Made by a program: the position numbers and the translations under genes
Assembly (NCBI GenBank): GCA_934527315.1
Contig: CAKTAK010000004.1
Location: forward strand, 7,109-71,108
Length of the DNA stretch: 64,000 bases
From: an uncultured Oscillospiraceae bacterium
Lineage (GTDB): Bacteria; Bacillota; Clostridia; Oscillospirales; Oscillospiraceae
Direction of reading: 5' to 3'
Shown: in pieces, positions 5,362 to 27,386 of the stretch
Layout of the letters: the number at the start of each line of letters is the position of its first letter
Position numbering within the stretch: position 1 is the stretch's first letter
The notes under the pieces: model-generated
Seen by the model: only the letters and a program-made list of their open reading frames with translations
What the model was told of the DNA's origin: nothing
Databases searched by the model: none

Positions 5362-7293
5362 ATGAACGAATTTTTGAAAGACAAAAAACGTCTGCTGATG
5401 GCAGGCGGCGCGGTGTTACTGGTGGTGATTGCCGTCATTCTGGTGTTCTCTCTCCGGTCTCACAACCGCACGGTGCAGTATCAGAATTACCGCACCTCCG
5501 CAGAAACCTGCGTGGAAAACGGCGATTACGACAAGGCCGTGCGTTATCTGGAGCGCGCTTATGACGTAAAGGACACAGACGAGTGCGCCATTGCTCTGGC
5601 CAATGCCTACGTGCTGGCCGGACAAACGGACAAAGCCGAGGAGCTGCTGTGGGCGCAGATGGAGCGCAAGGGCAGCGATACCGCCAAACTGAAACAGGCT
5701 TTGGCGTCTTTGGGCGTGGAGGACGAAATTCCCACCAAGGGCGTGGAAATCGCCGGAAAGCTCTATGACGAAACCGCCTCTTCTCTGGTCATTACCGACA
5801 CCAAGCTGTCCAAAGACGATTTGGACCAGCTGGAAAATTTCGAATCCCTCACCGCACTGACGCTGAAAAACTGCGGCATTGACGATTTGGCATTTCTGAA
5901 GCATTGCGGCAGTCTGACCAGTCTGACCCTTTCCGACAACGGTATCGAAGACCTGAGCAGCCTGAAACATCTTACCGATTTGCGGACGCTGTATCTGGAC
6001 AACAACCCCATTGAGGATTTCAGCCCGCTGTACAAGCTGAAACACCTGACCACTCTGAGCATCAAGAAAATCGAGCTGACCCAGACCCAGTATGACGAGC
6101 TGTCCAAAAAGCTGGAGGACTGCAAGATTTTCAGCGATGACACCGTAGCGGAGGAATTGGAGCTGGGCGGCGTGAAATTCGATACCGATGTTACGGAACT
6201 GGACCTGACCAACAAGCACATTCGGGATATTTCCGTACTGGCAAAATGCACGCAGCTGCAATCTCTGAATCTGAAAGGCAATGAGGTTTCCGATTTGAGT
6301 CCTCTGGAGCATCTGAATAACCTCACTTGGCTGTGCCTGTGGGACAACGAAGTTTCCGATTTGAGCCCGCTGAGCAGTCTGACGCAGCTGACCTATCTGG
6401 ATTTGGAAGACAACAAATTTTCCAGTATTCGGGAACTGTCCTCTCTGAACAGTCTGACGGAACTGTCCATTGACGACAACAACCTGACCAGTTTCTCCAC
6501 GCTGTCCAGTTTCGGCAATCTCCGCAAGCTGAGCGTCCGGAATACCGGTCTGACCGACAACGATCTGAATCAGCTGAAACTGTCCACCCTCACCGATTTG
6601 GACATCAGCAACAACAGTGCTCTCACCGGCGCCGGTGTAAAAAAACTGAAGGATTCCATGCACAAGTGCAATATCATCCACGATGATTTGACCATCAACG
6701 TCACCCTGGGCAACAAAACCTTCTCCGCCGACGCGCAGATTGTGGATGCCTCCAACAGCAATGTGACGGATTTGAGCAATCTGGACCAGTTCACGGCAGT
6801 CACCTCTCTGATGCTGAACAACAACAGCATTTCCGACTTCTCTCCCCTGAGCAATCAGACCAATCTGAATGTTCTGGAGCTGCAGAGCACCGGTCTGTCC
6901 GATTTGACGTTCTTAGCCGGTCACAAAAAGCTGACCAATCTGAATCTGGCCAACAACAATCTGAAGGACGTCTATTCTCTGTCCAGCTGCACCGGTCTGA
7001 CGGAGCTGCTGCTGAACAACAACACGGCGCTGAAAGATGTTGCACCTTTGGCTTACTGCAGCAAGCTGCGGGACCTGTATCTGGACAACACCGGCGTCAC
7101 CGATGTGTCCGCGCTGAGCAAGCTGACCAAGTTGGAAAACCTCTATTTGGACAACTGCAAACTGGCAGACCCCACGCACCTGCATAGCCTGACCAGCCTG
7201 AAAACCCTGTCCATCATCGGCTGCGGTTTCACCGATGAGCAGGTGGCGGAAATCAAAGCCGCCCTGCCCAACTGTGCGGTGTATGCGGGATAA
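5362..7293 (+). CDS. Membrane-anchored leucine-rich-repeat (internalin-like) protein
   Basis: 643 aa. N-terminal transmembrane helix, a TPR-like segment, then about 17 consecutive 22-residue LRRs of the form LxxLxxLxxLxLxxNxIxDxSxLx. Confidence 0.8.
   Translation: MNEFLKDKKRLLMAGGAVLLVVIAVILVFSLRSHNRTVQYQNYRTSAETCVENGDYDKAVRYLERAYDVKDTDECAIALANAYVLAGQTDKAEELLWAQMERKGSDTAKLKQALASLGVEDEIPTKGVEIAGKLYDETASSLVITDTKLSKDDLDQLENFESLTALTLKNCGIDDLAFLKHCGSLTSLTLSDNGIEDLSSLKHLTDLRTLYLDNNPIEDFSPLYKLKHLTTLSIKKIELTQTQYDELSKKLEDCKIFSDDTVAEELELGGVKFDTDVTELDLTNKHIRDISVLAKCTQLQSLNLKGNEVSDLSPLEHLNNLTWLCLWDNEVSDLSPLSSLTQLTYLDLEDNKFSSIRELSSLNSLTELSIDDNNLTSFSTLSSFGNLRKLSVRNTGLTDNDLNQLKLSTLTDLDISNNSALTGAGVKKLKDSMHKCNIIHDDLTINVTLGNKTFSADAQIVDASNSNVTDLSNLDQFTAVTSLMLNNNSISDFSPLSNQTNLNVLELQSTGLSDLTFLAGHKKLTNLNLANNNLKDVYSLSSCTGLTELLLNNNTALKDVAPLAYCSKLRDLYLDNTGVTDVSALSKLTKLENLYLDNCKLADPTHLHSLTSLKTLSIIGCGFTDEQVAEIKAALPNCAVYAG
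5840..7230 (+). repeat. Tandem 66-nt coding repeats encoding the LRR units
   Basis: Recurrent near-identical stretches, e.g. gaggtttccgatttgagtcctctggagc at about 6284 and gaagtttccgatttgagcccgctgagc at about 6348. Confidence 0.55.
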
Positions 7294-8077: not shown

Positions 8078-8995
8078 ATGCGCTGGATTGAAGTAACCGT
8101 CAACTGCACCGGTGACCCGGATTTGATGTGCGCCGACCTGGCTGAGCTGGGCGTGGGCGGCATGATTGTGGAAGACGAGCAGGATTTTGAAAATTTCTTG
8201 GAAAATAACCACGCCTACTGGGATTATGTGGACGAGGAACTGGAAAATAAATTCAAGGGTGTTTCCCGGGTGAAATTTTATCTGTCCGATGATGAAGAGG
8301 GCAAAGCCCTGCTGAACACCGTGGCAAACTTCCTGGGCAAAATGCCGGAGACCGCCTTTGTGCAGGACAGCGACTGGGAAAACAACTGGAAAGAGTTTTA
8401 CAAACCCATTGAAGTGGGCGAAAAGCTGGTGGTTGTGCCGGAGTGGGAGCCCGTCCCGGAAGACGGCCGGATTCCGCTGAAACTGGACCCGGGCTTGATT
8501 TTCGGCACCGGCAGCCATGCCACCACAAAAATGTGTCTGGCTGCGCTGGAATCCGTGGCAGGTCCCGGAAAAACCGTTCTGGACTTGGGCTGCGGCTCCG
8601 GAATTCTGGGCATCGGCGCGCTGCTGCTGGGCTGCGACCGCTGCGCCGGCTGCGATATTGACCCGAAAGCACCGGAAGTTGCCCTGTCGAATGCCGGTTT
8701 GAACGGCATTACCGCCGAAAAATTCGACATTCGCGCCGGAGACGTACTCTCCGATGCAGGGATGCGGAAAGCTCTGGGCAGCAATTATGACATTGTGACC
8801 GCAAACATTGTCTCCGACGTCATCATTCCCCTGTCCGGTTTCGTCAAGGAATTTTTGAAACCCGGCGGAACGTTCATCACTTCCGGCATTATCGAGGGTC
8901 GTCAGGACGAGGTGCGTCAAGCCATTGAGGACAATGGTTTCACCATTCTGGAGCATCACAACGAGGACGATTGGCATTGCTTTGTCGCCCGGTAA
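8078..8995 (+). CDS. prmA: Ribosomal protein L11 methyltransferase
   Basis: MRWIEVTVNC... with a class I SAM-binding motif LDLGCGSGILGI. A GGAGGA ribosome-binding site is present. The ORF-track start at 7862 is an upstream GTG/ATG that overlaps the hpf terminator. Confidence 0.85.
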   Translation: MRWIEVTVNCTGDPDLMCADLAELGVGGMIVEDEQDFENFLENNHAYWDYVDEELENKFKGVSRVKFYLSDDEEGKALLNTVANFLGKMPETAFVQDSDWENNWKEFYKPIEVGEKLVVVPEWEPVPEDGRIPLKLDPGLIFGTGSHATTKMCLAALESVAGPGKTVLDLGCGSGILGIGALLLGCDRCAGCDIDPKAPEVALSNAGLNGITAEKFDIRAGDVLSDAGMRKALGSNYDIVTANIVSDVIIPLSGFVKEFLKPGGTFITSGIIEGRQDEVRQAIEDNGFTILEHHNEDDWHCFVAR

Positions 8996-9007
8996 GTGAA
9001 ATTGTAT

Positions 9008-9050
9008 AAAAAACAGAACCTGTCACTTCACAATGACAGGTTCTATTTTT
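9008..9050. terminator. Bidirectional intrinsic terminator between the convergent prmA and small membrane-protein genes
   Basis: AGAACCTGTCA-loop-TGACAGGTTCT flanked by an A-run upstream and a T-run downstream. Confidence 0.7.
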
Positions 9051-9273
9051 ATTTCATTCGTTTTTTCAGAAGTGCCATAACAATCAGAATTCCGGCAACC
9101 ACCACAACGGTGAGTACACCGTTCATCAGAATGCCGTAATACCACGGCGCTGATTGCATGGCATACAGTTCCGGGTAAGTCTTGTACTCTTTGAATTCAT
9201 AGCAGCTGTTGCCGATAAAAACACCCACAAAACACCAAATGGCCGTTTTCAGAATCCGATAGACCTTTTCCAT
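9049..9273 (-). CDS. Small hypothetical membrane protein
   Basis: 74 aa with two hydrophobic helices. No recognisable domain. Confidence 0.45.
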   Translation of the reverse strand: MEKVYRILKTAIWCFVGVFIGNSCYEFKEYKTYPELYAMQSAPWYYGILMNGVLTVVVVAGILIVMALLKKRMK

Positions 9274-9292
9274 GGCAGCACCTCCACTTCTT

Positions 9293-10024
9293 TTATATGC
9301 CCAGCCGTTTCACCATATAATCGTGCGCCGCCTGCTCCACGGTGTCGTCCAATGCCGGGAGCACGAACTCCGGATTTTTCCGATGAATGGCCGTGGTCAG
9401 AATGACGTCGGCAAATTCCGGGTTTTTGGGCAGCACCGGACCGTGGCTGTACGTGCCGAATACGTTCAGATACCGCACGCCCTCGCCCTTGTCTTCTCCG
9501 TTGTTGCCGGAGCCGGTGAGCACCTGCCCCAAGGGAGAAACGCCTGCGCCCAGCCATGTTTTGCCGCTGTGGTTTTCAAATCCAACCACCACGCTGCCGC
9601 CGGATTCCGGACCGCAGCGGAAAGCGAAATTGCCAATCATACGTTCTTTTTCGCCCACGGTGGCATAATCAATGGCGCCGATAAAATCGCAGGTTACGCC
9701 GTCCCAAGTGGTATAGCTGCGGCCCAGCATCTGATACCCGCCGCAGATGGTCAGAAAGGTTTTTCCGTCGGCAATGGCGCTTTTGATTTCCGCCGCTTTG
9801 CCCCGATTCAGGTCGCTCAGCAGCACTTCCTGCTCAAAATCCTGCCCGCCGCCGATGAAAAACAAATCATAATCGGCAAAATTCACCGTTTCCCCAATGG
9901 GCACCCGGGTCACTTGGGAGTCAATGCCCCGCCAAGTCAAGCGCTGCTGCAGGCAGCGGATATTGCCGTTGTCGCCGTACAGATTCAGCACGTCCGGATA
10001 CAGATGACAAATTTTCAGTTCCAT
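9293..10024 (-). CDS. gatD: Lipid II isoglutaminyl synthase, glutaminase subunit (CobQ-like glutamine amidotransferase)
   Basis: 243 aa MELKICHLYPDVLNLYGDNGNIRCL.. with a GATase-1 fold. It lies immediately downstream of murT in the conserved pair. Confidence 0.85.
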   Translation of the reverse strand: MELKICHLYPDVLNLYGDNGNIRCLQQRLTWRGIDSQVTRVPIGETVNFADYDLFFIGGGQDFEQEVLLSDLNRGKAAEIKSAIADGKTFLTICGGYQMLGRSYTTWDGVTCDFIGAIDYATVGEKERMIGNFAFRCGPESGGSVVVGFENHSGKTWLGAGVSPLGQVLTGSGNNGEDKGEGVRYLNVFGTYSHGPVLPKNPEFADVILTTAIHRKNPEFVLPALDDTVEQAAHDYMVKRLGI

Positions 10025-12723: not shown

Positions 12724-13021
12724 ATCATACCCTCCTCGGCAAAATTTTTTATAGTTCTGTTTTCCACAATTCTACCATATATGACGCAATTTCTCCAAAA
12801 TTGTTCCGCCTTTTTCGTCATTTTTCCCTGCCAATTCTTCCTGCCCATTTTTGGCGAAAAAAGCGAAATTTCCGGTTTCGTCAGGAATTCAACAATCCTT
12901 TCAGTATTTCTTAACGTTTTGTCATACATTTAAATTTATATTCATGTAATATTACACTGCTATGACTATCTGTCATGCAGTTGTATTTATAATGTATATT
13001 GGATTGTGACGAGGTTCAGTT

Positions 13022-14701
13022 ATGAAAGAGGAAAAGAAAATTCCGGGGGTTGCCGATGTGAAGAAGTTGAAACACTTCAACATCTACAACCACAACGATG
13101 TACAGTTTGAGCCGACCTTCGTTTCCGTAGGCCGCCAGATTGAGAGCATTGCCCAGACCAAGCCCAACGAAATTGCTGTGATTGAAATTTCTAAGGACGA
13201 TACGGAAGTCAAAACAGCCACTTGGAAAGACCTGTATCTGAAATCCAACCAGCTGGCATGGCTGCTCAAGGAAGAGGGCATCACCAATACCAGCACGGTC
13301 ATGATTTGCCTGCCCAACACCATTGCCCATATTCTCTGCATTTACGCAGCTTGGAAAAACGGCGCCTGCTATCTGCCCATTGCCCCCCGCTCCACAGACG
13401 GGGAAATCGACAACTTCGTGGCCTTGGCAAAACCCGATTTGCTGATTACCGAGGGATATCAGCCGGAAGGCGTTAAGTGCATGACCGTGGAAACTCTGAT
13501 GGAGCGGCTCAACGCTTATTCCGACAAAATGCCCCCCGATATTCTGGCCAATCCCTACCGTGCGCAGACCACCGGCGGCTCCACCGGCAAGCCGAAACTG
13601 ATTCGTTTCACCCGCCCCGCCGGAGAATCCGACGAAAGTCTGATGGCATGGTTCTATATGACCGGTATGTTCTTCGGCTGCCGTCAGCTGATTTGCGGAC
13701 CGATGTTCCACAGCGCACCCGCCTCCGCACTGATTACCGGTCTGTGCTGCGGCAACCGCATTGTGATGCCCAACAACTTCAAGCCCGCTGCCATTGAGCG
13801 GTACATCAAGGATTACGAAATTGAGTGCGTCCAGATGGTGCCCACTCTGATGCACCGTATGCTGAAATTGGATACCTTCAACCCCGAGGACTTCAAGAGC
13901 GTGAAAGCGCTGTCTCACACCGGCGGCTACTGCTCCGCAGAGCTGAAACGGGCATGGATTAACATTCTGGGCGCCAAAAACGTCTACGAAATCTACTCCA
14001 TGAGCGAAATGATCGGTATCACCACCATTCGCGGCGATGAATGGTTGGAGCATCCCGGCAGCGTGGGTCGGCCCTTCGGCGGCTGCAAAATTTCCGTTCG
14101 GGCGGAAGACGGCACGGAGCTGGCGCCCGGCGAAGTGGGCGAGATTTTCATGACCCCCTCCGGCGGCTATCTCCAGACGGAATACATCGGCCGAGAACAG
14201 CTGGCAGACGTGGGCGGCGGATTCCGCAGCGTAGGCGATATGGGCTACGTAGACGATGAGGGCTATCTGTACTTCTCCGACCGGCGGAGCGATATGATTG
14301 TTACCGGCGGTGAAAACGTATTCGCCGTGGACGTGGAAAACGTCTTTATGGAGCACCCGGACATCAACGACATTGTGGTGGTTGGTATCCCCGACCCGGA
14401 ATGGGGCCGTCGGGTTCACGCCGTGGTGGAGGCAAAACGGGAAATGACCTACGACGAATTCCGTCGGTACGGTTGGAAATTCCTGCTCCCCTTTAAGGTT
14501 CCCAAAACCGTTGAGTATGTGGACGCCCTGCCCCGGAAAGACAGCGGCAAAATCAACCGGGCAGAGCTGGCGGAAACCTGCGAAAGATTGCAGAAAGACC
14601 TGGTCAAGCCCTTCGGAATCATCGACACCGGGCTGCGTCAGCTGCTCCGGGAAAGAGCGGCACAGGCAGACGCTGCCGAGGCTGCGGAATCCAAAAAATA
14701 A
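13022..14701 (+). CDS. AMP-dependent synthetase/ligase (acyl-CoA ligase; BaiB/CaiC-like activating enzyme)
   Basis: 559 aa. AMP-binding motif TGGSTGKPK, motif GEIFMTPSGGY, and a C-terminal lysine motif PRKDSGKINRAEL. Confidence 0.85.
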   Translation: MKEEKKIPGVADVKKLKHFNIYNHNDVQFEPTFVSVGRQIESIAQTKPNEIAVIEISKDDTEVKTATWKDLYLKSNQLAWLLKEEGITNTSTVMICLPNTIAHILCIYAAWKNGACYLPIAPRSTDGEIDNFVALAKPDLLITEGYQPEGVKCMTVETLMERLNAYSDKMPPDILANPYRAQTTGGSTGKPKLIRFTRPAGESDESLMAWFYMTGMFFGCRQLICGPMFHSAPASALITGLCCGNRIVMPNNFKPAAIERYIKDYEIECVQMVPTLMHRMLKLDTFNPEDFKSVKALSHTGGYCSAELKRAWINILGAKNVYEIYSMSEMIGITTIRGDEWLEHPGSVGRPFGGCKISVRAEDGTELAPGEVGEIFMTPSGGYLQTEYIGREQLADVGGGFRSVGDMGYVDDEGYLYFSDRRSDMIVTGGENVFAVDVENVFMEHPDINDIVVVGIPDPEWGRRVHAVVEAKREMTYDEFRRYGWKFLLPFKVPKTVEYVDALPRKDSGKINRAELAETCERLQKDLVKPFGIIDTGLRQLLRERAAQADAAEAAESKK

Positions 14702-14793: not shown

Positions 14794-14958
14794 CCCCTCA
14801 TTTTTCGTAAAATTCTCCCCGGTTTTTACGGATTCTCCGCTGCATTTTTGCAAAATGCCGTTCTTTTGCAGATTGCGCATAAAATAACAAAATCTTCCAT
14901 TTTGAGTGCCAAACCCAATCAGAATACTTATCTTTCTTCAAAAATTGTTCTGAAAAAC

Positions 14959-14987
14959 TTGCTTTTTGTCCGAAAAATTGTTATTAT
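14959..14987 (+). promoter_or_regulatory. Putative promoter for the AraC-family regulator
   Basis: TTGCTT-N17-TATTAT. Confidence 0.4.
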
Positions 14988-15014
14988 TCCAGAAGAAAAA
15001 GGCAGGTGTTCCCC

Positions 15015-16250
15015 ATGATTACCCAAAGAAAAGCCATGCCTCTGTGCGATAAACCGGAATGTGGGATGTTCTCCTCTCCGGATAAGCTGCTGCAGATGCA
15101 AAAACTGACGATTTCAGATCATATCGGTCCGCTGGCGGAAGACGATTCTCTATTCCTTTACGTCACCGGCGGCCGCGGCTACGCAACCATCAACGGCGTG
15201 GTGTTTGACCTGAAACCCGGCTGTTTTCTCTGGCTGCAGTCTTACCATGTCTTCAGCCTGGAATCGGTCTGGGGCGAATCTCTGGAATTAACCGCCATGG
15301 TATATGATTACCCCTTGTCCAGCTATATGACCTTCCGCTCGGACCACACCCGGGACCGGAATCTGTGGGCTTTTGCCTCCTCTCCCCCGGTGTTTCAGTT
15401 GGAAGGTCCCAAACGGGAACGGCTGGAAATGATGCTCCGGGAATTCGAGTTTTACAACAATGACCACGATTCCGGCAGCAATCTGATTAAATGCGCCATT
15501 CTGGGGCAGATGTCCTATTTCTTCTTCGCGCTGTGCGACCAATACCGCAGCCAGTTTCCCTACGTTCGCCATCAATGGCCCATGGGCTGGGTGCTCAGTC
15601 TGTATATTGCTTATTACTGCGCCGAGGATTTGGACCCGAAAGACGTGGCCGACCTGTTCGGCATTAGCGTGGGTACACTGAACCGGGAATTGCGCATCAT
15701 TACTGGTATGAACTTTGCCCAGTCTCTGAACCGCGCCCGGGTCAATCTGGCCGCCGGCGCCATTCTGTTCAGCGAGCTGTCTTTCCACTTTTTGTCCACC
15801 TACTGCGGTTTCCGCTCCGAAGTGGCTTTTTACCGCACGTTCAAGGAGCAGAAAGGCATGACTCCCCAAGAATATCGGGAGTATGCCGTCCACTATACCG
15901 GCGTTCCCCGGAAAATGGTCAGCGAAACCGTGGAACGGATTCTGTACTATATCCACTCCAACTACCGGGAGCAGATCAGCCTGAAATCCATGGCCCAGGA
16001 TTTGTATATCTCCGAGAATATCATCCGCACCCTGCTCCGGGAAAATCTGAACACCAGCTTTAAAGACATTCTCTCCGCCTACCGCATTCGTTATGCCGAG
16101 GCGCTGCTGGTGGTAACGGACCTGCCCATTCTGGATATTTCCTTGGCCTCCGGTTTTAACTCCGAACGGACGTTTACCCGGTTGTTCAAGGACCGAAACG
16201 GCATCACGCCCAGCACCTTCCGGAATCAACACATGAGGGAGACAACATGA
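15015..16250 (+). CDS. AraC-family transcriptional regulator with an N-terminal cupin-like sensor and two complete tandem AraC-type DNA-binding domains
   Basis: 411 aa. First DNA-binding domain: LDPKDVADLFGISVGTLNRELR...STYCGFRSEVAFYRTFKEQKGMTPQEYR. Second DNA-binding domain: ISLKSMAQDLYISENIIRTLLREN...ASGFNSERTFTRLFKDRNGITPSTFR. Confidence 0.85.
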   Translation: MITQRKAMPLCDKPECGMFSSPDKLLQMQKLTISDHIGPLAEDDSLFLYVTGGRGYATINGVVFDLKPGCFLWLQSYHVFSLESVWGESLELTAMVYDYPLSSYMTFRSDHTRDRNLWAFASSPPVFQLEGPKRERLEMMLREFEFYNNDHDSGSNLIKCAILGQMSYFFFALCDQYRSQFPYVRHQWPMGWVLSLYIAYYCAEDLDPKDVADLFGISVGTLNRELRIITGMNFAQSLNRARVNLAAGAILFSELSFHFLSTYCGFRSEVAFYRTFKEQKGMTPQEYREYAVHYTGVPRKMVSETVERILYYIHSNYREQISLKSMAQDLYISENIIRTLLRENLNTSFKDILSAYRIRYAEALLVVTDLPILDISLASGFNSERTFTRLFKDRNGITPSTFRNQHMRETT

Positions 16251-16783
16251 AAAAGCTCAAATACTCCGCACCCTTCGACAGTCGAGATTATTTCACCCAG
16301 AATATTCTCCCCACAGCCATTTTGGCTGACCAGAAAACCATTCGGAAACAGATTCCCTACCGGCAGCATGACGATTTGGAAATTCTTCTGATTCGTCAGG
16401 GCTCCGGCACCATTACGGTCAACGCGGTGGAATACCCCGTCACCCGTGGGGATTTGTTCTGTTTCAGCCCTTATCATTTCCACCGTCTGGACGCGGTGGA
16501 CGGCGACAAGCTGGAGGTTTCCGAGTGCCATGTGAACAGCGGCGTTTACTTTTACGTGACCGCCTGCCCCTACTATCACACGGAGGAAACCACCGCCCTG
16601 CCCTACCCTCATCTGCACGTCAAATTGAGCGAATCCCAGACCCGGCAGGTGGAATATCTGCTGGACGGCATCGCCATGGAAAGCGCCCAGAAAAACATTC
16701 AGGAGAATCAATCCTGTTTCTTCCTGCTGATGAAACTGTTCGGCATTGTGGAGCGCTGTGCCGTAAAGCCGGACGCAGACTGA
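16247..16783 (+). CDS. Stand-alone cupin protein (AraC-type ligand-binding-like), translationally coupled to the regulator
   Basis: 178 aa. Its ATG overlaps the araC-like stop (ATGA). Cupin-like motifs HDDLEILLIRQGSG..GDLFCFSPYHFH. No helix-turn-helix. Confidence 0.7.
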   Translation: MKKLKYSAPFDSRDYFTQNILPTAILADQKTIRKQIPYRQHDDLEILLIRQGSGTITVNAVEYPVTRGDLFCFSPYHFHRLDAVDGDKLEVSECHVNSGVYFYVTACPYYHTEETTALPYPHLHVKLSESQTRQVEYLLDGIAMESAQKNIQENQSCFFLLMKLFGIVERCAVKPDAD

Positions 16784-16907: not shown

Positions 16908-16995
16908 TATTGTTTTTCTGTAAAAAACATGGGGCGGTCAAGCTGTCTGCCCCGCATTTTCCCATATTGCACGATTGATTGGAGGAGGCTTACCC

Positions 16996-17751
16996 ATGGG
17001 ACATCATTTGATGGATGGTAAAACTGTCTTTCTGACAGGTGGAGCCGGAGGAATCGGATTTGCAACTGCTCGTCTGATGTTGGAAGAGGGCGCGCAGGCT
17101 GTTTTAATCACGGATCTGAACGAGGAAGTAACCACAAAGGCTGCCGAAAAGCTGAAAAGCGAGTTCCCCGGCCGGAACATTGAGGCCGCTTGGCCCAATT
17201 TGGGCAGCGAAGAAGAAATCGGTGCCGTAATGCGCGCCTTTGCGGAAAAATACGGAAAGCTGGACGCTGTGCTGTCCATTGCCGGTATTACCCATAACAC
17301 GACCATCAAGCGGATGCAGCCCGGTGAGTTTCTCCGTCAGGTGGACGTGAACCTGATTGACACCTACAATGTGGACCGGCAGGCCGGTCTGATTATGCGC
17401 GAGCAGCGGTTCGGTTCCATTGTGAACACCAGCTCCATCTGCGGTCTGTACGGCAACCCCATGGGCTGCGGTTACGGCGCATCGAAAGCCGGTGTGATCG
17501 GTCTGACCAAGTCTTTGGGCCGCGAGCTGGGCTACTTCAATGTCCGGGTCAACTGCGTTGCGCCCGGCGCAATCCGCACCCCCATGACCGCAAACCTTTC
17601 CAAAGAGGCGCAGGCTGCCGCAGTGGCTAACATTGCGCTGCGCCGCATCGGCGAGCCGGAAGAAGTTGCAAACGTTTTTCTGTTCCTGGCCTCCGATTTG
17701 TCCACCTACTGCACCGCCTCGGTTTACAACGTGGACGGTTTTTCCATCTGA
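16996..17751 (+). CDS. Short-chain dehydrogenase/reductase (classical SDR, BaiA/FabG-like), paralog 1
   Basis: 251 aa. TGGAGGIG Rossmann motif, catalytic YGASK, and C-terminal EPEEVANVFLFLASDLSTY. A GGAGGAGG ribosome-binding site is present. Confidence 0.85.
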   Translation: MGHHLMDGKTVFLTGGAGGIGFATARLMLEEGAQAVLITDLNEEVTTKAAEKLKSEFPGRNIEAAWPNLGSEEEIGAVMRAFAEKYGKLDAVLSIAGITHNTTIKRMQPGEFLRQVDVNLIDTYNVDRQAGLIMREQRFGSIVNTSSICGLYGNPMGCGYGASKAGVIGLTKSLGRELGYFNVRVNCVAPGAIRTPMTANLSKEAQAAAVANIALRRIGEPEEVANVFLFLASDLSTYCTASVYNVDGFSI

Positions 17752-17806
17752 AAAACGCCGGAAACCCTTGAAAAATAAGGAGTTTTTACGTATATTCTAT
17801 AAGGAC

Positions 17807-17844
17807 AATGCCGCAGATAGAACATATCTGCGGCATTGTTTTTA
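17807..17844 (+). terminator. Rho-independent terminator after SDR-1
   Basis: AATGCCGCAGAT-loop-ATCTGCGGCATT followed by GTTTTTA. Confidence 0.75.
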
Positions 17845-17891
17845 TTCACTATGCACAATTTTTGACAATCTGATTTAAGCAAAACGATTTC

Positions 17892-17920
17892 TTGACTTCC
17901 TGCACACAGCGTGATAATAT
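17892..17920 (+). promoter_or_regulatory. Sigma-A promoter for SDR gene 2
   Basis: TTGACT-N17-TAATAT. Confidence 0.55.
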
Positions 17921-17980
17921 TAACAACAAGAGCGAATGATTCACACTACGCTACTGAATTATTGATTGGAGGAAATTCAC

Positions 17981-18763
17981 ATGGAAAACATGATGAAGGG
18001 CAAGAACGTATTTATTACCGGCGGTTCCCGCGGTATCGGTTTTGCCACCGCAAGAGAAATGCTGAAGGAAGGCGCTAACGCAGTTGCTATCTGCAGCCAC
18101 TTTGAGGAAACCCGCGAGGCCGCTCTGGCTAAGCTGAACGAGGAGTTCCCCGGCCGCAACATCGTTGGCTACACCTTCGATCTGGCTACCTGCACCGAGG
18201 CTGAAATCGATGCATGCATGAAAGACTTCATTGCTAAGTTCCCCAACGAGGAAGGCAAGCAGCATCTGGACGCTGTCTGCTCCATCGCTGGTATCACCCA
18301 CAACAACACCTGCAAGAACATCCCCGAGGGTCTGTTCGAAGAGGTCGTTCGCGTCAACCTGATCGGCACCTGGTACGTTGACCACTGCGCTTGCAACATC
18401 ATGCGCGGCCAGAAGTACGGCGCTATCGTGAACACCGCTTCCATCGCTGGTGTGTACGGCTCCTCCATGGGTGCTGGCTACGGCGCTTCCAAGGGCGGCG
18501 TTGTTGGTCTGACTCGTTCTCTGGGCCGTGAGATGGCTTACTTCAACGTTCGCGTGAACGCTATCTGCCCGGGCGTTGTGAAGACCGACATGGTTATGAA
18601 GGACACCTCCGAGGCTGCTATCAAGTACGTGTGCCAGGGCATTGCTATGCACCGTATGGGCGAGCCCGAAGAGCTGGCTAAGATGTTCGTGTTCCTGTCC
18701 TCCGATGCTTCCAGCTACTGCGAAGCAGGCATCTACCACTGCGACGGCTGGACCACCGGCTGA
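17981..18763 (+). CDS. Short-chain dehydrogenase/reductase, paralog 2 (strong highly-expressed-type codon bias)
   Basis: 260 aa. TGGSRGIG, YGASK, EPEELAKMFVFLSSDASSY. A GGAGGA ribosome-binding site is present. Codon usage is dominated by gct/acc/atc/aag/ttc/tac, as in the ribosomal genes of this window. Confidence 0.85.
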   Translation: MENMMKGKNVFITGGSRGIGFATAREMLKEGANAVAICSHFEETREAALAKLNEEFPGRNIVGYTFDLATCTEAEIDACMKDFIAKFPNEEGKQHLDAVCSIAGITHNNTCKNIPEGLFEEVVRVNLIGTWYVDHCACNIMRGQKYGAIVNTASIAGVYGSSMGAGYGASKGGVVGLTRSLGREMAYFNVRVNAICPGVVKTDMVMKDTSEAAIKYVCQGIAMHRMGEPEELAKMFVFLSSDASSYCEAGIYHCDGWTTG

Positions 18764-18789
18764 TATTGCACTCAATATCGAAATTTTCA

Positions 18790-18816
18790 GGACCCGGTTT
18801 TACCGGGTCCTTTTTT
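18790..18816 (+). terminator. Rho-independent terminator after SDR-2
   Basis: GGACCCGG-tttta-CCGGGTCC followed by TTTTTT. Confidence 0.8.
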
Positions 18817-18906
18817 ATTGCTTTCAGCCATCTTTAACAATATATTATTTTTGTCAAATGTACAAAATTCACAAAAAATATTGACACTTTTCTGATTATC
18901 TTACTC

Positions 18907-18935
18907 TTGACATTTAGTTGTCAAAAAGGTATCAT
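18907..18935 (+). promoter_or_regulatory. Sigma-A promoter for CoA-transferase 1, with the -35 embedded in a TTGACA-N6-TGTCAA inverted repeat
   Basis: TTGACA-N17-TATCAT. Further TGTCAA/TTGACA half-sites lie at about 18852 and 18881. Confidence 0.55.
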
Positions 18936-19050
18936 AACATAGTCGGAATCAATTTGGAGAGTGATTCCTCTTACTTGTTAAATTACCGGAGTTCGTTTCC
19001 GGACGAGCTGTGGCTGTTTAAAAGACATATTGAAAGGAAGTTATGTTGTA

Positions 19051-20409
19051 ATGAACGTTAAAGTGATTAACAACGCACTGCATCAGAAATTCAATGAGTA
19101 CCCCGGTTTCGGTGTTCTGGAAGGCGTGAAAGTTCTCGTCACCGGCACTAACATCGCTGGCCCCTTCGCAGGCTGCCTGATGGCTGAAATGGGCGCAAAG
19201 GTTGTCCAGGCTGAGGCTCCCAACATCCTGTGCCAGACCCGTGGTACCACCGCTTGGTCTCAGAACCACAGAAACGAATACTCCATCACTCTGAACACTG
19301 CTACCGCTCGCGGCAAAGAAGTGTTCCTGAAGGCTATCGAGTGGGCAGACATCTGGATCGAGGCTGGCCGTCCCGGTGGCTACGAGAAACGCGGCTTGTC
19401 CGACGAAGTGTGCTGGGAGCACAACAAAAAGCTGGCTATTGTCCACGTTTCCGGCTACGGCCAGTTCGGCCCCGCTAAGGACAAGGCTTCCTACGACGTT
19501 TCCGGCCAGGCAATGGGCGGCTACATGTACATGAACGGTGTCAGCCCCACTTCCGGCATGCTGAAAGTGAACCCCTACCTGTCCGACTACGTAACCGCTT
19601 ACAACGCTTGCATCGTGGCTCTGGCTGGCTACATCCATGCTAAGAACTTCGGCGAAGGCGATTCCTGCGACGTTGCTCAGTACGACACCATGTTCCGTCT
19701 GCTGGATAACTACCCCGCAGTGTGGTTCAACAAAGGCTATCCCAAACAGGGCGAGCCCGTTCCCTTCCGTACCGGTAACAAGAGCGACCAGGCTTGCTGC
19801 TTCTCCTTCTATGACACCAAAGACGGCGGCGCAATGTTCGTTGCTATCGTTGGCCAGGGCCCTGTGACCCGCGGCTACCCCATCATCGGCATGGGCACCC
19901 CCGGTGTCGATCCCGAAATCCCCGCAGCCTGCACCGGTTTCCCCCTGTTCGATCCTCGCGGCCAGAAGGCTGAGGCTCTGATCACCAAGTTCTGCGCAGA
20001 GCGTACCTGCGACGAGCTGGAAGAGATCTTCACCAAGGCCGGCATCCCCTGCCAGAGAGCTTACACCCCCGCTGACATCGAGAAGGATACTCAGTACGAG
20101 GCACGTGAGAACATCGTTGAGTGGGACGACCAGGTGTTCGGACCCATGAAGGGCATTGGCTGCACTAACATCTTCAAGAAACACCCCTCTCAGATCGTTG
20201 CTTCCGCTCCTACCTTCGGCGAGCACAACCGCGAGTTCCTGGAGTCTCTGGGTTACTCCGCAGCAGAGATCGACGAGATGTATGCTAAGAAGGAAATGGT
20301 CACCATGACCGCTGCTGACACCGCTGTCGTGAAGAACCTGGCAGCTTGGGGCTTCTTCTGGGATCCCAAACGTCAGAGCGAGCGTCTGGGTCTGGAGTTC
20401 AAGGGCTAA
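19051..20409 (+). CDS. Family III (CaiB/BaiF-type) acyl-CoA transferase, paralog 1 (highly-expressed-type codon bias)
   Basis: 452 aa. NIAGPFAG, WADIWIEAGRPGGYEKRGLSDEVCWEHNKKLAIVHVSGYGQFGP, GDSCDVAQYD, PFRTGNK. Shares AAGGAAG ribosome-binding site context with paralog 2. Confidence 0.9.
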   Translation: MNVKVINNALHQKFNEYPGFGVLEGVKVLVTGTNIAGPFAGCLMAEMGAKVVQAEAPNILCQTRGTTAWSQNHRNEYSITLNTATARGKEVFLKAIEWADIWIEAGRPGGYEKRGLSDEVCWEHNKKLAIVHVSGYGQFGPAKDKASYDVSGQAMGGYMYMNGVSPTSGMLKVNPYLSDYVTAYNACIVALAGYIHAKNFGEGDSCDVAQYDTMFRLLDNYPAVWFNKGYPKQGEPVPFRTGNKSDQACCFSFYDTKDGGAMFVAIVGQGPVTRGYPIIGMGTPGVDPEIPAACTGFPLFDPRGQKAEALITKFCAERTCDELEEIFTKAGIPCQRAYTPADIEKDTQYEARENIVEWDDQVFGPMKGIGCTNIFKKHPSQIVASAPTFGEHNREFLESLGYSAAEIDEMYAKKEMVTMTAADTAVVKNLAAWGFFWDPKRQSERLGLEFKG

Positions 20410-20438
20410 TCCTTTCTCCAACCAACAGAATTTTACAA

Positions 20439-20469
20439 GGACCGCAGTTTTTGCTGCGGTCCTTTTTTT
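20439..20469 (+). terminator. Rho-independent terminator after CoA-transferase 1
   Basis: GGACCGCAG-tttttg-CTGCGGTCC followed by TTTTTTT. Confidence 0.8.
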
Positions 20470-20586
20470 GTGTTTCCGGGAACGGACATTTTCGGGGAAA
20501 TGTCTGCGTAACCAACATATTGCCATATTCTTAGTTCATACTGCACAAGAATATTTCTGTTTTTTGAGCGGTTTTTGAATTAGTTG

Positions 20587-20615
20587 TTGACATTGACATT
20601 GAAATAACATATAAT
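20587..20615 (+). promoter_or_regulatory. Perfect consensus sigma-A promoter for CoA-transferase 2 (tandem -35 hexamers)
   Basis: TTGACATTGACA ... TATAAT. The first TTGACA is exactly 17 nt from TATAAT. Confidence 0.65.
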
Positions 20616-20674
20616 CAATACAAGCTTTTGGAAGGAAGCTCTTGCAAAACTTAAATTGAAAGGAAGTCATTGCC

Positions 20675-22039
20675 ATGAAAGTATTCAATAATGCTCTGCA
20701 TCAGGATTTTGCAGCTTACCCCCAGTTCGGTGTCCTCCGCGGCGTAAAAGTTTTTATTACCGCTACTAATATTGCCGGTCCTTTCGCCGGTTCTCTGATG
20801 GCCGAAATGGGCGCACAGGTTCTGCGTGCAGAGCATCCGAAAATTGCCTGCTCCACCCGTGGCACAACTGCTTGCTCTCAGCTGCACAGAAACGAGTACT
20901 CCATCACTCTGAACGCAGCAACTGCCCGCGGTAAAGAAGTATTTCTGAAGGCAATTGAATGGGCTGATATTTGGATCGAGGCCGGTCGTCCCGGCGGTTA
21001 TGAGAAACGCGGTCTGTCCGATGAAGTTTGCTGGGAGCACAACAAAAAGCTCTCCATCGTGCACGTTTCCGGTTATGGTCAGTTTGGTCCTTACAAAGAC
21101 AAGGCTTCCTATGACGTATCTGGCCAGGCAATGGGCGGCTACATGTACATGAACGGCGTGAACCCCACTTCCGGTCCTTTGAAAGTCAACCCCTATCTGT
21201 CTGACTATGTGACTGCATACAACGTATGCATTGCTGCAATGGCAGGCCACATCCACGCACTGAAGTACGGCGAAGGCGACTCCTGCGACGTTGCTCAGTA
21301 TGATAACATGTTCCGTCTGCTGGATAACTATCCCGCAGTGTGGTTCAACAAGGGCTATCCCAAAGCAGGCGAGCCCGTTCCCTTCCGCAGCGGCAACAAG
21401 CACGACAGCTCTGCAGGTTTCTCCTTCTACAACACCAAAGACGGCGGCGCAATGTTCGTTGCTATCGTTGGTCAGGGTCCTGTGGAACGCGGATTCCCCA
21501 TCATCGGCATGCCCGCCCCCGGCAGCGGTGAAAAGGTTCCCGGTCTGGACATGGTCGTTGACGCACGTTGCACCGGCTACCCCATCTTCGATCCTCGCGG
21601 TCAGGTAGAAGAAAAGCTGATCGAGCAGTTCTGCGCAGAGCGCACCTGCGATGAGCTGGAGAAGATCTTCACCGAAGCCGGTATCCCCTGCCAGAGAGCT
21701 TACACGCCCGCTGATATCGAGAAGGATCCTCAGTACGAGGCACGTGAGAACATCGTGGAATGGGACGACCAGGTATTCGGACCCATGAAGGGCATTGGTT
21801 TGACCAACATCTTCAAACGGAACCCCTCCGACATCGTTGCATCTGCACCTCTGTTCGGCGAGCACAACCGCGAGGTTCTGTCTGCTTGGGGCTTCTCCGA
21901 TGCTGATATCGACGATATGTACGCTAAGGGCGAGCTGGAAAGCTGGACCGCAGCCGATACCGCACGGAACAAGATGCTGAAAGAGTGGGGCTTCTTCTGG
22001 GATCCCGAGCGTCAGGCAAAGCGCATCGGTCTGGAGTAA
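20675..22039 (+). CDS. Family III (CaiB/BaiF-type) acyl-CoA transferase, paralog 2
   Basis: 454 aa, about 75-80% identical to paralog 1 at the protein level, but with many synonymous differences (more ggt/tat/gat/ttt codons). Confidence 0.9.
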   Translation: MKVFNNALHQDFAAYPQFGVLRGVKVFITATNIAGPFAGSLMAEMGAQVLRAEHPKIACSTRGTTACSQLHRNEYSITLNAATARGKEVFLKAIEWADIWIEAGRPGGYEKRGLSDEVCWEHNKKLSIVHVSGYGQFGPYKDKASYDVSGQAMGGYMYMNGVNPTSGPLKVNPYLSDYVTAYNVCIAAMAGHIHALKYGEGDSCDVAQYDNMFRLLDNYPAVWFNKGYPKAGEPVPFRSGNKHDSSAGFSFYNTKDGGAMFVAIVGQGPVERGFPIIGMPAPGSGEKVPGLDMVVDARCTGYPIFDPRGQVEEKLIEQFCAERTCDELEKIFTEAGIPCQRAYTPADIEKDPQYEARENIVEWDDQVFGPMKGIGLTNIFKRNPSDIVASAPLFGEHNREVLSAWGFSDADIDDMYAKGELESWTAADTARNKMLKEWGFFWDPERQAKRIGLE

Positions 22040-22082: not shown

Positions 22083-22116
22083 ATTCCCTGCAGTGCTGCT
22101 GCAGGGAATTTTTTTG
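22083..22116 (+). terminator. Rho-independent terminator after CoA-transferase 2
   Basis: ATTCCCTGCAG-tgctg-CTGCAGGGAAT followed by TTTTTTT. Confidence 0.8.
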
Positions 22117-22200
22117 CCTTCGATGGGGATTTCTCTCTTTTATCATTGTCGAATTTGTGATACAGTAGCACTATTCTCGAAAATTGGAGCTGTAAGCCGC

Positions 22201-23544
22201 ATGGAACACGATTTGACCTCCGGAAAGGTATTTCCCACGCTGATTTCTTTCTCTATTCCCTACCTCATATCCTATTTTCTCCAAACCCTGTACGGTATGG
22301 CGGATTTGTTCATCATCGGCCGATTCTGCGCCGTAGAGGCAACCACCGCTGTTTCCATCGGCAGTCAAGTGATGCACATGCTCACGGTCATGATTGTGGG
22401 CCTTGCTATGGGAACCACCGTAAAAATCGGTCATGCCATCGGCAGCGGCGACCGCAGTGAAGTCAACCGCATCATCGGCAATACGGTTGTTCTCTTTGCC
22501 GGTATCGCCGTGGTTTCTCTGGTGTTGCTGTCGAGGTACGTGCGGCCCATCGTTTCTCTGATGTCCACCCCGGAAGAGGCTGCGGTGGGAACGGTAAATT
22601 ACCTGCTGATTTGTTTCATCGGGATTCCCTTTGTGATGGCATATAATATCATCAGCTCTATTTTCCGCGGGTTGGGCGATTCCAAAACACCTATGTACTT
22701 CGTGACCATTGCCTGCGTGGTGAATATTCTGCTGGACTATCTGTTCATCGGCGGGTGTGGTCTGGGTCCCGCCGGCGCCGCTTTGGGAACGACCCTTGCC
22801 CAAGGCGTGAGCGTCATTCTGGCTTTGATTTACATTCGGAAAATGAACAAAATCTCCGGGTTTTCCCGGGCGGATTTCCGCCCCCAAAAGGAAACGCTCC
22901 TGCCCATTTTGCAGGTCGGAATCCCCGTAGCCGCGCAAGACGGATTGATTCAGATTTCCTTCCTCCTCATCACCGTTTTTGCCAACCTCCGCGGTCTGAC
23001 CGATGCAGCCGCCGTGGGCATTGTGGAGAAGATTATCAGCTTTCTGTTTTTGATTCCCTCCTCCATGCTCTCCGCTGTATCGGCGCTGGCTGCTCAGAAT
23101 ATCGGTGCCGGAAAGCATGACAGGGTCCGTTTGACCCTGCAATATGCGCTGTGCATCGCCGTGGGCATGGGCTTTGTTTGGGTGATTCTGATGCAATTTG
23201 CCGCAGATTCCGCAGTTGCGCTGTTTACCAAAGACCCGACAGCCATTGCCATGGGCGGCGAGTATATGCGGGGCTACGTTTGGGATTGCGTGTTCGCCGG
23301 GATTCATTTCTGCTTTAGCGGATATTTCTGCGCTTACGGAAAATCGTGGATTTCCTTTCTCCAGAACATTCTCTCCATTGTCCTTGCCCGGGTGCCGTTG
23401 GCATGGTATACCGCAAGATTTTGCTTGGACAGCCTTTTTCCCATGGGTCTGGCTGCTCCCGCCGGCTCCCTGCTGTCGGTGGTCGTTTGCCTGATTGCCT
23501 ACAAGCTGCTACGGAAGAACTCCCCGGAATTGCAGGGAAAATAA
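22201..23544 (+). CDS. MATE-family efflux transporter
   Basis: 447 aa from MEHDLTSGKVFPTLISFSIPYLISYFLQTLYGMADLFIIGRF. About 12 transmembrane helices. The ORF-track start at 22093 is upstream of the terminator and is unlikely. Confidence 0.8.
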   Translation: MEHDLTSGKVFPTLISFSIPYLISYFLQTLYGMADLFIIGRFCAVEATTAVSIGSQVMHMLTVMIVGLAMGTTVKIGHAIGSGDRSEVNRIIGNTVVLFAGIAVVSLVLLSRYVRPIVSLMSTPEEAAVGTVNYLLICFIGIPFVMAYNIISSIFRGLGDSKTPMYFVTIACVVNILLDYLFIGGCGLGPAGAALGTTLAQGVSVILALIYIRKMNKISGFSRADFRPQKETLLPILQVGIPVAAQDGLIQISFLLITVFANLRGLTDAAAVGIVEKIISFLFLIPSSMLSAVSALAAQNIGAGKHDRVRLTLQYALCIAVGMGFVWVILMQFAADSAVALFTKDPTAIAMGGEYMRGYVWDCVFAGIHFCFSGYFCAYGKSWISFLQNILSIVLARVPLAWYTARFCLDSLFPMGLAAPAGSLLSVVVCLIAYKLLRKNSPELQGK

Positions 23545-24035: not shown

Positions 24036-25253
24036 TCAAATCAACAAACCGTAACGATTCACCAACGGCAGCAACTCCTCTTCCGACAAGCCGCCCTCGT
24101 ACAGCGCCCGACCCTGATACACCCGCAACGCAGCCTCCAACAGGTCTGCGCTGTCGCAAACCAGACACAGCGGTTTGGAAAACAGATACTGCACGTCCGC
24201 CAATGCGTCCACGTCTTCCCAGCTGTCAACCGCCACAGCCACCATAGGGAATCCGTCCTCCATGGCGTCGGTCAAATCCTCTTCCAACGTGTCGCTGCAC
24301 CGGAGCACCGGACCGTGGTCTGCATCTACCGGAAGGCAGAACACCTGCTTTTCCGTGGCAGCGGTGAGCTCGTCCGTATGCATGGGTGCGGGAGGTACAA
24401 ATTCCGCCCCCTCCAATGCCCGATTCAGTGCCGCAAGGTGGGTTGCGTCGGTGCCGCAGCAGCCGCCGAAGAATCCCACACCGGCAGCCAACATCTCCGG
24501 CACATACGAGGCAAACTTCTCCGGCGGGAAGTTGTAAACCGCTTTTCCCTCCGACATATCCGGCAGACCGGCATTGGGTTTTGCCATCAGTGGCACCCGG
24601 GCAAATTCCCGCAGCCGCTGCACCTGCACCACCATCGTTCCGATATCCGACAGGCAGTTCAAGCCGAAAGCGTCTACCCCCATGCCCTGGAGCACCGTCA
24701 GCGCTGCGGTCACGTCCGTACCGGACAGACTCCGTCCGTTTTCATCGCAGGTAAAGGACACCAAAATGGGTTTATCGGACACGCTGCGCACCGCCAACAC
24801 CGCTGCCCGGGCATCGGGCAGGGTCATCATGGTTTCAATCACGAACAAGTCCACCCCCGCTGATGCAAGTCCCGCAGCCTGTTCCGTGTAAATATCCACC
24901 AATTCTTCAAACGAGGCGGTGCCCATGGGAGAAAGGAACAGTCCCGTGGGCGCAATGTCCCCCGCAATCCATGCGCTGTTTCCCAAAGCCGACCGGCTCA
25001 AACCCACCAGACGGGCATTGTACTCCTCGGTTTGATTAAATATGCCCCGCTCCTCCAATTTCTGCCGATTGGCGCCGAATGTGGGCGCGTAAACAATGCG
25101 GCTGCCGGCTGCCACATAACTCTGCTGAATCTCTGCCAGCGCCGCCGGGTGCTCCAACAGCCATTGCTCCGTGCTAATCTCGCCGGTATATCCCCGGACC
25201 TGCGCCGCGGTACCCATGGCGCCGTCCAATAGAACGGGAAAACGCAATTCCAT
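24036..25253 (-). CDS. Homocysteine S-methyltransferase-family (zinc/thiol methyltransferase) protein with an extra C-terminal region of about 110 aa
   Basis: MELRFPVLLDGAMGT.. with the zinc motif FFGGCCGTDATH. A GGAGGA ribosome-binding site is present. It lies 4 nt downstream of the RACo gene. Confidence 0.8.
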   Translation of the reverse strand: MELRFPVLLDGAMGTAAQVRGYTGEISTEQWLLEHPAALAEIQQSYVAAGSRIVYAPTFGANRQKLEERGIFNQTEEYNARLVGLSRSALGNSAWIAGDIAPTGLFLSPMGTASFEELVDIYTEQAAGLASAGVDLFVIETMMTLPDARAAVLAVRSVSDKPILVSFTCDENGRSLSGTDVTAALTVLQGMGVDAFGLNCLSDIGTMVVQVQRLREFARVPLMAKPNAGLPDMSEGKAVYNFPPEKFASYVPEMLAAGVGFFGGCCGTDATHLAALNRALEGAEFVPPAPMHTDELTAATEKQVFCLPVDADHGPVLRCSDTLEEDLTDAMEDGFPMVAVAVDSWEDVDALADVQYLFSKPLCLVCDSADLLEAALRVYQGRALYEGGLSEEELLPLVNRYGLLI

Positions 25254-25271
25254 GCCTGATTCCTCCAAACT

Positions 25272-26774: not shown

Positions 26775-26843
26775 CCGCCAATATAATGAATGTAAATTTC
26801 ATTTTACGCAGAAACCAATCGGATTGTCAAGAGGCATCGAACC

Positions 26844-27380: not shown

Positions 27381-27386
27381 ATCCCA

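Follow-up and report, generated by a model that had tools for sequence, protein, structure and literature searches.

An AraC-family regulator with two tandem DNA-binding domains and an overlapping sensor-domain gene at a bai-type gene island of an uncultured Oscillospiraceae bacterium

A regulator that carries two AraC-type DNA-binding domains (DBDs) on one chain, and whose gene runs into that of a small cupin-like protein, raises the question of how the two products act together, and on which genes. Such a pair is encoded by an uncultured Oscillospiraceae bacterium (GenBank assembly GCA_934527315.1, contig CAKTAK010000004.1, positions 7,109 to 71,108 of the forward strand). This whole stretch of 64,000 nucleotides is called the window here, and coordinates refer to it unless another locus is named. 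The regulator gene, barA, covers 15015-16250 on the plus strand and encodes 411 amino acids (aa), counted from the ATG in the list of open reading frames (ORFs) of the window. An alternative GTG start at 15006 would give 414 aa; in the alignment, the homologues begin at the ATG. The small gene, barB (16247-16783, plus strand, 178 aa), overlaps barA by an ATGA at 16247-16250. We find that the two genes encode BarA/BarB-type regulators of a bai-type (bile-acid CoA-pathway) gene island, and that the pair is a new member of a family that has been named and is functionally uncharacterised.

In BarA, an AraC-family protein, a single cupin/helical sensor domain precedes two different, complete DBDs in tandem. 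The AraC/XylS family is characterised by a DBD of about 100 aa with two helix-turn-helix motifs, and this feature was found twice in BarA. The whole protein matched the Pfam profiles HTH_18 (E 5e-33) and HTH_AraC in two stretches each. When scanned separately, residues 185-300 reached 56.5 bits with HTH_18 (profile positions 2-79 of 80) and residues 301-411 reached 64.3 bits (positions 1-80 of 80), at a curated cut-off of 33.6 bits; the first region is not a degenerate linker. DBD1 (residues 190-295, 15582-15899, plus strand) has both helix-turn-helix units and matched the solved DBDs of XylR and AdpA over residues 197-289. DBD2 (residues 303-405, 15921-16229, plus strand) is likewise a complete AraC module, and residues 303-407 matched the solved DBDs of Lin2118, AraT, GadX, AraC, SoxS, Rob and MarA. 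The two domains are 28% identical to each other (E 1e-10). An AlphaFold2 model, calculated with 21 homologues as input (predicted local distance difference test score (pLDDT) 85.7, predicted template modelling score (pTM) 0.71), placed a beta-barrel (residues 28-97), a helical region (110-180) and two modules of seven helices (184-294 and 304-410) in one continuous chain. Foldseek matched the modelled DBDs to AraT, Lin2118, YesN, GadX and AdpA, with target-based template modelling scores (TMt) of 0.83-0.93 for DBD2, and found no solved chain spanning all three domains (query-based score (TMq) ≤0.30). The sensor domain (residues 1-189, 15015-15581, plus strand) consists of the cupin barrel at about 28-97 and the helices behind it. 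Its score with the Pfam profile AraC_binding was marginal (22.4 bits, cut-off 21.1), and its fold resembled the regulatory domains of RhaR, AraC and BgaR (TMt 0.62-0.68). Cupin sensor domains are typical of AraC/RhaS proteins; a regulator can belong to the AraC/XylS family without one. The initial annotation of this DNA, made from the letters and an ORF list, had proposed an N-terminal cupin-like domain, two full AraC DBDs in one chain, reading frames of 411 and 178 aa and an ATGA overlap between them; all of this was confirmed, the cupin-like domain chiefly by its fold matches.

Both DBDs are under similar constraint. In the alignment of 21 sequences the mean column identity was 0.62 for DBD1, 0.61 for DBD2 and 0.46 for the helical part of the sensor domain, and the linker of seven residues between the DBDs was conserved as well (0.65). 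Invariant among the 21 homologues were N223, L226, R242, F272, R274 and F276 in DBD1, and R357, R389 and F391 in DBD2. The invariant R274 and R389 occupy the position of MarA R96, R224 of DBD1 (kept in 17 of the 21) that of MarA R46, and the nearly invariant R338 of DBD2 that of MarA Q45. In MarA, R46 and R96 contact bases of the DNA (PDB 1bl0, itself a match to DBD2). A recent internal duplication of the DBD was ruled out, with 28% identity at the protein level and only 64 nucleotides shared at 70% at the DNA level (repeat D5).

Tandem AraC DBDs are a sizeable family and not rare. An exhaustive phmmer search with residues 190-411 of BarA against 1.84 billion cluster representatives (50%-identity clusters) gave 1187 matches at E ≤1e-10. 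Among the best 150 matches, more than 100 were proteins of about 385-430 aa that aligned to the whole segment of 220 residues in one stretch, located at about 185-405 in those proteins, with identities down to 25-27%. The duplicated DBD had been put forward as unusual in the initial annotation, a claim that does not stand against these numbers. Literature searches on tandem AraC DBDs turned up no mention of the architecture in the papers searched. Four distant tandem-DBD proteins (loci L025, L026, L027 and L028; DBD identity 25-29%; regulator at 4001 to about 5200 in each) were all encoded divergently from Epimerase/3Beta_HSD genes, and a short-chain dehydrogenase (SDR) gene was also present in two of these loci (L026 and L027). 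As a hypothesis, the tandem-DBD architecture may be a general type of steroid-responsive regulator in gut Firmicutes, to which BarB was added in the bai-associated subfamily. Other arrangements of AraC domains were observed as well. A family of 550 aa (P0268) has the domain order cupin-DBD-cupin-DBD, which amounts to a complete AraC regulator doubled within a single polypeptide; its 90% cluster comprises 14 proteins from several contigs, 12 of 550 aa and two shorter fragments. Locus L024 contains, about 0.5 kb downstream of a BarA/BarB-like pair and about 1 kb past the barA stop, a second AraC-family gene (8267-9454, minus strand, 395 aa) with HTH_AraC/HTH_18/HTH_AraC matches, which adjoins an MFS transporter gene and may encode another tandem-DBD regulator.

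The small partner BarB was identified by Pfam, its model, Foldseek and hhalign as a stand-alone AraC-type sensor/dimerisation domain. It matched AraC_binding with 33.3 bits, at a cut-off of 21.1, and Cupin_2 with 28.5 bits, at a cut-off of 27.2. In the model (pLDDT 72.3) a barrel is followed by two long C-terminal helices. The best structural matches were the regulatory/dimerisation domains of RhaR, AraC and BgaR over 158-171 columns (TMq 0.55-0.62), whereas cupin enzymes matched the barrel alone, over about 98 columns. An AraC-type cupin ligand-binding/dimerisation domain is hence present in both BarA and BarB. Indeed, the BarB profile aligned to residues 31-155 of BarA with an hhalign probability of 97.9% (32% pairwise identity), and BarB is a DBD-less paralogue of BarA's own sensor domain. 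All 46 BarB homologues found by sequence are stand-alone and unnamed; 44 of them measure 169-189 aa and two are shorter fragments. The BarB proteins of the window's own clade (loci L005-L010, 64-77% identity) share C72, H77, H79, C94, H95 and C107, which are replaced in other clades, and a conserved His/Glu metal motif of the cupin type (HxH...E...H) was not found across the BarB clades. Since AraC-type folds match over the whole length, BarB is paralogous to a part of BarA and the cupin metal motif is missing, BarB is a detached AraC-type ligand-binding/dimerisation domain rather than an enzyme. Two options had been offered for this protein, a detached second ligand-binding domain and a small cupin enzyme: the fold matches to RhaR and AraC and the hhalign result bear out the former, and the lack of the metal motif speaks against the latter.

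The junction of the two genes (16235-16250, plus strand) has a Shine-Dalgarno sequence GAGGGAG at 16235-16241, the ATG of barB at 16247-16249 and the TGA of barA at 16248-16250. In 24 of 24 loci barB started between -17 and +16 nucleotides from the barA stop, and the genes overlapped in 19. This overlap or abutment at every locus points to coupled translation. At locus L029 (833-2692) a single ORF encodes a protein of 619 aa, P0185, which is an in-frame fusion of a BarA-like protein and a C-terminal BarB-like domain (AraC_binding at 462-525). The P0185 gene adjoins genes for an enoyl-CoA hydratase and a MaoC dehydratase.

The names barA and barB come from bile-acid loci. An AraC-family barA and a barB annotated as "hypothetical protein" of 195 aa are listed for Oscillospiraceae UBA11811 (PMC9426597, Table 1), both are named as predicted bile-acid regulatory elements in Eubacterium sp. 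c-25 (PMC8623032), and an AraC-type regulator is located upstream of the bai operon of C. scindens VPI 12708 (PMC10382948). The window pair was assigned through homologues in other bai genomes, the C. scindens VPI 12708 pair being compared by description. BarA was 38-43% identical, over 97-98% of its length, to genes divergent from baiB in recognised bai-operon (7-alpha-dehydroxylating) bacteria, namely P. hiranonis, E. muris, Dorea sp. D27, P. sphenisci and Peptacetobacter. In the first four of these, and in Oscillospiraceae metagenome-assembled genomes (MAGs), genes for homologues of full length (38-47% identity) are divergent from baiB-baiCD-baiE-baiA. A genome scan recovered relatives in Extibacter muris DSM 28560, Dorea sp. 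D27, Proteocatella sphenisci DSM 23131, Peptacetobacter spp., a Lachnospiraceae isolate and many Oscillospiraceae MAGs; it was built on an alignment of six sequences and probably missed the subclade of C. scindens/C. hylemonae type. The cluster P0080, with 340 members, belongs to Peptacetobacter hiranonis (WP_432792244).

The gene neighbourhoods support this assignment. Homologues at 37-47% identity were encoded together with an overlapping gene of about 180-200 aa. At most of these loci the pair was divergent from a series encoding an AMP-binding ligase, an Oxidored_FMN+Pyr_redox_2 protein (639 aa), a SnoaL_4 protein (168 aa), an SDR (250 aa) and a CoA_transf_3 protein, which is the order baiB-baiCD-baiE-baiA-baiF. 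By tblastn, barA, barB and a baiB-type ligase gene occurred together in the window and in 22 of 22 loci, among them Peptacetobacter hiranonis, Extibacter muris and Proteocatella sphenisci, with the order and orientation of the other genes varying. The genes barA and barB were adjacent wherever examined, in the window and at 23 further loci with identities as low as 33%. At locus L023 the genes barA-barB-baiA-baiB-MFS-baiF are co-directional, with baiE and baiCD on the opposite strand, and this layout reproduces the published one of UBA11811. The window pair shows both traits of the named genes, an AraC gene adjoining bai genes and a small gene directly downstream of it. No functional study of BarA or BarB was found in the literature searched, and where the searched papers name barA/barB they mention neither the tandem DBDs of BarA nor the sensor nature of BarB.

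The island around the pair has the order baiB-type ligase, barA, barB, two SDRs, two CoA transferases and a MATE transporter, all on the plus strand. The ligase (13022-14701, 559 aa) is a bile acid-CoA ligase of BaiB type, with 667.7 bits against the NCBIfam model bile_CoA_BaiB at a cut-off of 650; it has Pfam AMP-binding domains and is 48.6% identical to BaiB of P. hiranonis. Both BaiA-like SDRs (16975-17751 and 17966-18763; Pfam adh_short) have a promoter of their own and share 38% and 34% identity, respectively, with BaiA of P. hiranonis. They are followed by two BaiF-like family III CoA transferases (19030-20409 and 20675-22039), the first of which shares 80% identity with the L023 gene in the baiF position, and by the MATE transporter (22093-23544). 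The SDR pair (54% amino-acid identity) and the CoA-transferase pair (79%) are tandem paralogues. Loci of the window's clade share this composition, with a baiB-type ligase, barA, barB, 2-3 SDRs and 2-3 CoA transferases. Every island gene has its own sigma-70-like promoter, strong at the SDR and CoA-transferase genes (16975-22039), and terminator-like hairpins stand behind several of them (18789, 20437 and 22080). The initial annotation had linked the regulator to adjacent catabolic genes; such neighbours do exist, and their bai-type bile-acid nature, now seen from the BaiB score above the cut-off, had gone unrecognised.

A candidate BarA operator was found in front of the ligase gene. The 21-bp box AGTATTTCTTAACGTTTTGTC (12903-12923, plus strand; pattern AGTWWWW-N7-KTTTGKC), a conserved motif with a putative function, ends 23 bp upstream of the -10-like TAATAT (12947-12952) of the baiB-type gene. 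In six of six orthologous baiB-type promoters a box AGTATTTY-N6-TTTTGKC was located at a fixed distance from the -10-like hexamer, and an ungapped alignment of these six orthologues revealed no -35 consensus at the usual spacing. With up to two mismatches, the strict pattern had three matches in the window, compared to 0.39 expected, and none of 100 shuffles reached three. Of 28 loci, 13 contained exact matches to the general pattern, 14 in total. Twelve were upstream of baiB or a baiB-like gene and in baiB orientation, and the matches spanned Oscillospiraceae, Lachnospiraceae and Peptostreptococcaceae loci. As background, the box with up to one mismatch occurred in about 0.5% of shuffled intergenic sequences. 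A second copy with one mismatch and in opposite orientation (14908-14928, minus strand) lies 87-107 bp upstream of the barA ATG. Such a reverse box, 87-117 bp upstream of barA, was also found in L007 (exact) and L008 (one mismatch) and was not seen at that position in L005, L006 and L009. The barA promoter itself (14959-14987, plus strand, start predicted) is conserved and sigma-70-like, with TTGCTT at 14959-14964, a spacer of 17 nucleotides and TATTAT at 14982-14987. The element TTTTTGTCC sits within its spacer, and CTTGCTTTTTGTCCGnnAAATTGTTATTAT is conserved at the barA promoter in L005, L006, L007 and L010. An exact box was further observed in L022 (1675-1695, minus strand), away from barA and about 120-140 bp upstream of a baiH/baiCD-like oxidoreductase gene, which suggests that in Peptacetobacter the box is not confined to a single bai promoter.

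How, then, could the two proteins act? Taken together, BarA and BarB have the domains of a canonical AraC homodimer, two sensor barrels and two DBDs, here spread over the chains as (sensor-DBD-DBD) and (sensor). The best explanation, which we think slightly more apt to be right than wrong, is that BarA and BarB form a heterocomplex that senses a bile acid, binds a composite operator and controls the bai-type island. BarB would pair with the sensor domain of BarA via the AraC-type dimerisation surface, and the complex would carry two ligand barrels and two DBDs, both DBDs on one chain. As the two DBDs are only 28% identical, we propose that the complex reads an asymmetric composite operator, and not equal direct repeats, which would include the 21-bp box upstream of the baiB-type genes. 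A bile acid or a pathway intermediate in one or both barrels would switch the complex, and the switched complex would activate the -35-less baiB-type promoter and modulate the promoter of barA. The analysis itself shows the domain architecture, the paralogy of BarB, the coupling of the genes, their conservation, the bai surroundings and the conserved box; that BarA and BarB dimerise, that both DBDs bind DNA, that the box is the operator, which ligand is sensed and in which direction regulation runs are predictions. A split or dual-input sensor, as already suggested in the initial annotation, seems the best reading of the pair, and a BarA monomer may plausibly bind a two-half-site operator. A more far-reaching version is tentative and, in our view, rather doubtful as a whole. 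It would make the pair an obligate asymmetric heterodimer, in which one chain holds both DBDs and the other only the second barrel, a previously undescribed build among AraC proteins. One composite operator would combine two ligand signals, which might be a primary bile acid on the one hand and a pathway intermediate or product on the other. The pair might then be the long-sought bile-acid sensor that induces the bai genes in gut Clostridia, and the wider tandem-DBD family might be steroid sensors beside 3-beta-HSD/epimerase genes.

Several observations weigh against the heterocomplex. With P. hiranonis BaiCD and BaiE as tblastn queries, baiCD, baiE and baiH were absent from the 64-kb window. 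The island is a partial bai cluster, not a complete 7-alpha-dehydroxylation operon, and its inducing ligand may consequently not be a 7-alpha-hydroxy bile acid. A split bai cluster, which the window island resembles, has been reported for Eubacterium sp. c-25 (PMC8623032), and as split clusters are known, baiCD, baiE and baiH may be located elsewhere in the genome. At the promoters of the island SDR and CoA-transferase genes no convincing box matches were found. The box measures 21 bp, the size expected for the site of one AraC DBD, and beside it a second half-site was not resolved, with a weak T-rich element about 33-34 bp away. A BarB-like neighbour is missing at three of the four distant tandem-DBD loci, so tandem DBDs can work without a partner. 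An ORF of 168 aa that overlaps the tandem-DBD gene in L026 was not counted as BarB, having no BLAST or Pfam similarity to it. Finally, P0185 is the lone member of its cluster, on one contig, and a metagenome scan for relatives found none. A genuine BarA-BarB fusion would support joint function, but P0185 could be an indel artefact; as a single member on a single contig it is weak evidence and was not used as strong support.

Alternative explanations differ in the part they assign to each protein. That the ORF of 411 aa arose by a frameshift or mis-assembly merging two neighbouring AraC genes has a probability close to nil: nothing was found in its favour, nearly all of the 97 homologues, which come from many independent assemblies and isolate genomes, have the full length of 403-426 aa and cover 97-100% of the query at identities as low as 33-35%, the linker between the DBDs is itself conserved, and the model is continuous and confident. 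With the architecture kept in distant homologues, an artefact in barA was excluded. Nor is it at all likely that the protein of 178 aa is a small cupin enzyme or carrier, for example an isomerase of bile-acid intermediates, that merely shares an operon with the regulator. Its Cupin_2 score lies just over the cut-off and several Cys/His residues are conserved within the window's clade, but these residues are not kept in other clades and do not form the cupin metal motif. AraC-family regulatory domains match the whole protein and enzymes only the barrel, BarB is paralogous to the N-terminal domain of BarA, and barB always follows barA and never an enzyme gene, whatever the gene order.

Another possibility is an antagonist role of BarB, which we regard as unlikely. 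Here BarB would cap or sequester BarA, or block its self-association, until a ligand releases it, and so act as a dominant-negative decoy. Anti-activators of AraC-family proteins follow a similar logic. BarB has dimerisation-type helices and no DBD, its paralogy to the N-terminal domain of BarA would also suit an antagonist, and coupled translation would give near-stoichiometric amounts of both proteins. The distant tandem-DBD relatives that function without such a partner would make BarB a possible modulatory add-on. Strict co-conservation of barA and barB in the window and 23 loci fits an obligate subunit better than an inhibitor, however, and the same holds for the possible in-frame fusion. 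We also find it distinctly improbable that one DBD alone is DNA-specific, the other being recruited for contact with RNA polymerase, non-specific bending or autoinhibition as in the AraC "light switch". BarA would then behave as an ordinary one-site AraC monomer or dimer, an outcome to which we give the same low weight. The sole clearly conserved box has the size for one DBD, and in its first recognition helix DBD2 lacks the Gln/Arg pair that DBD1 keeps (N223/R224 in DBD1, R338/T339 in DBD2). Against this, conservation is equal in the two DBDs (0.62 and 0.61), the full HTH_18 profile is matched by either one, and neither has lost the invariant Arg of its second recognition helix. More than 100 cluster representatives, with identities as low as 25-27%, also retain the complete tandem module.

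Other genes were noticed around the island. A corrinoid-dependent methyltransferase set lies directly past it (24036-29126), comprising an S-methyl_trans protein (24036-25268, minus strand), a RACo-type reductive activator (25272-26774, minus strand) and a fusion of URO-D and B12-binding domains (27387-29126, plus strand). At 5362-7293 (plus strand) a protein of 643 aa with tetratricopeptide repeats (TPR) and multiple leucine-rich repeats (LRR_4, E 1.6e-49) is encoded, which is unrelated to the regulator pair.

The bai pathway is inducible by bile acids, and the secondary bile acids derived from it affect resistance to Clostridioides difficile, liver disease and cancer risk. In the literature searched barA and barB are only names in gene tables, and the pair described here provides a concrete route to testing bai induction. 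The present analysis ties the pair to bai regulation, recognises BarB as a paralogue of the sensor domain and proposes an operator. Four points can be tested: the two distinct DBDs of BarA, BarB as a copy of the BarA sensor, the co-translation of both proteins, and the 21-bp box at baiB-type promoters in three families. They define the proteins to purify, the residues to mutate and the DNA to footprint. To those who study AraC proteins, the pair offers a natural case in which the domain inventory of a dimer is redistributed over chains, with related permutations in the single chain of order cupin-DBD-cupin-DBD and possibly in the BarA-BarB fusion.

Compared to the named barA/barB genes, the window pair has the same composition, an AraC gene and then a gene of about 180-200 aa beside baiB, baiA and baiF. 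It differs in being co-directional inside a partial island that has no baiCD, baiE or baiH within 64 kb. With the homodimeric regulators AraC, RhaS/RhaR, XylS and BgaR it shares the cupin barrel with dimerisation helices and the DBD of seven helices. The total of two sensor domains and two DBDs equals that of the canonical AraC dimer, but BarA holds both DBDs and the second sensor forms a chain of its own; moreover, with only 28% identity between the DBDs, their sub-sites in the DNA do not have to be repeats. MarA, SoxS and Rob, to which DBD2 aligns, show that one polypeptide can occupy a DNA site without dimerising. They are, however, single DBDs reading about 20 bp, whereas BarA has two DBDs and a sensor domain. 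The P0268 family likewise unites two AraC DBDs and two sensor domains in one functional unit; there the unit is covalent, a single chain of alternating order that has no partner gene and stands outside the BarA family.

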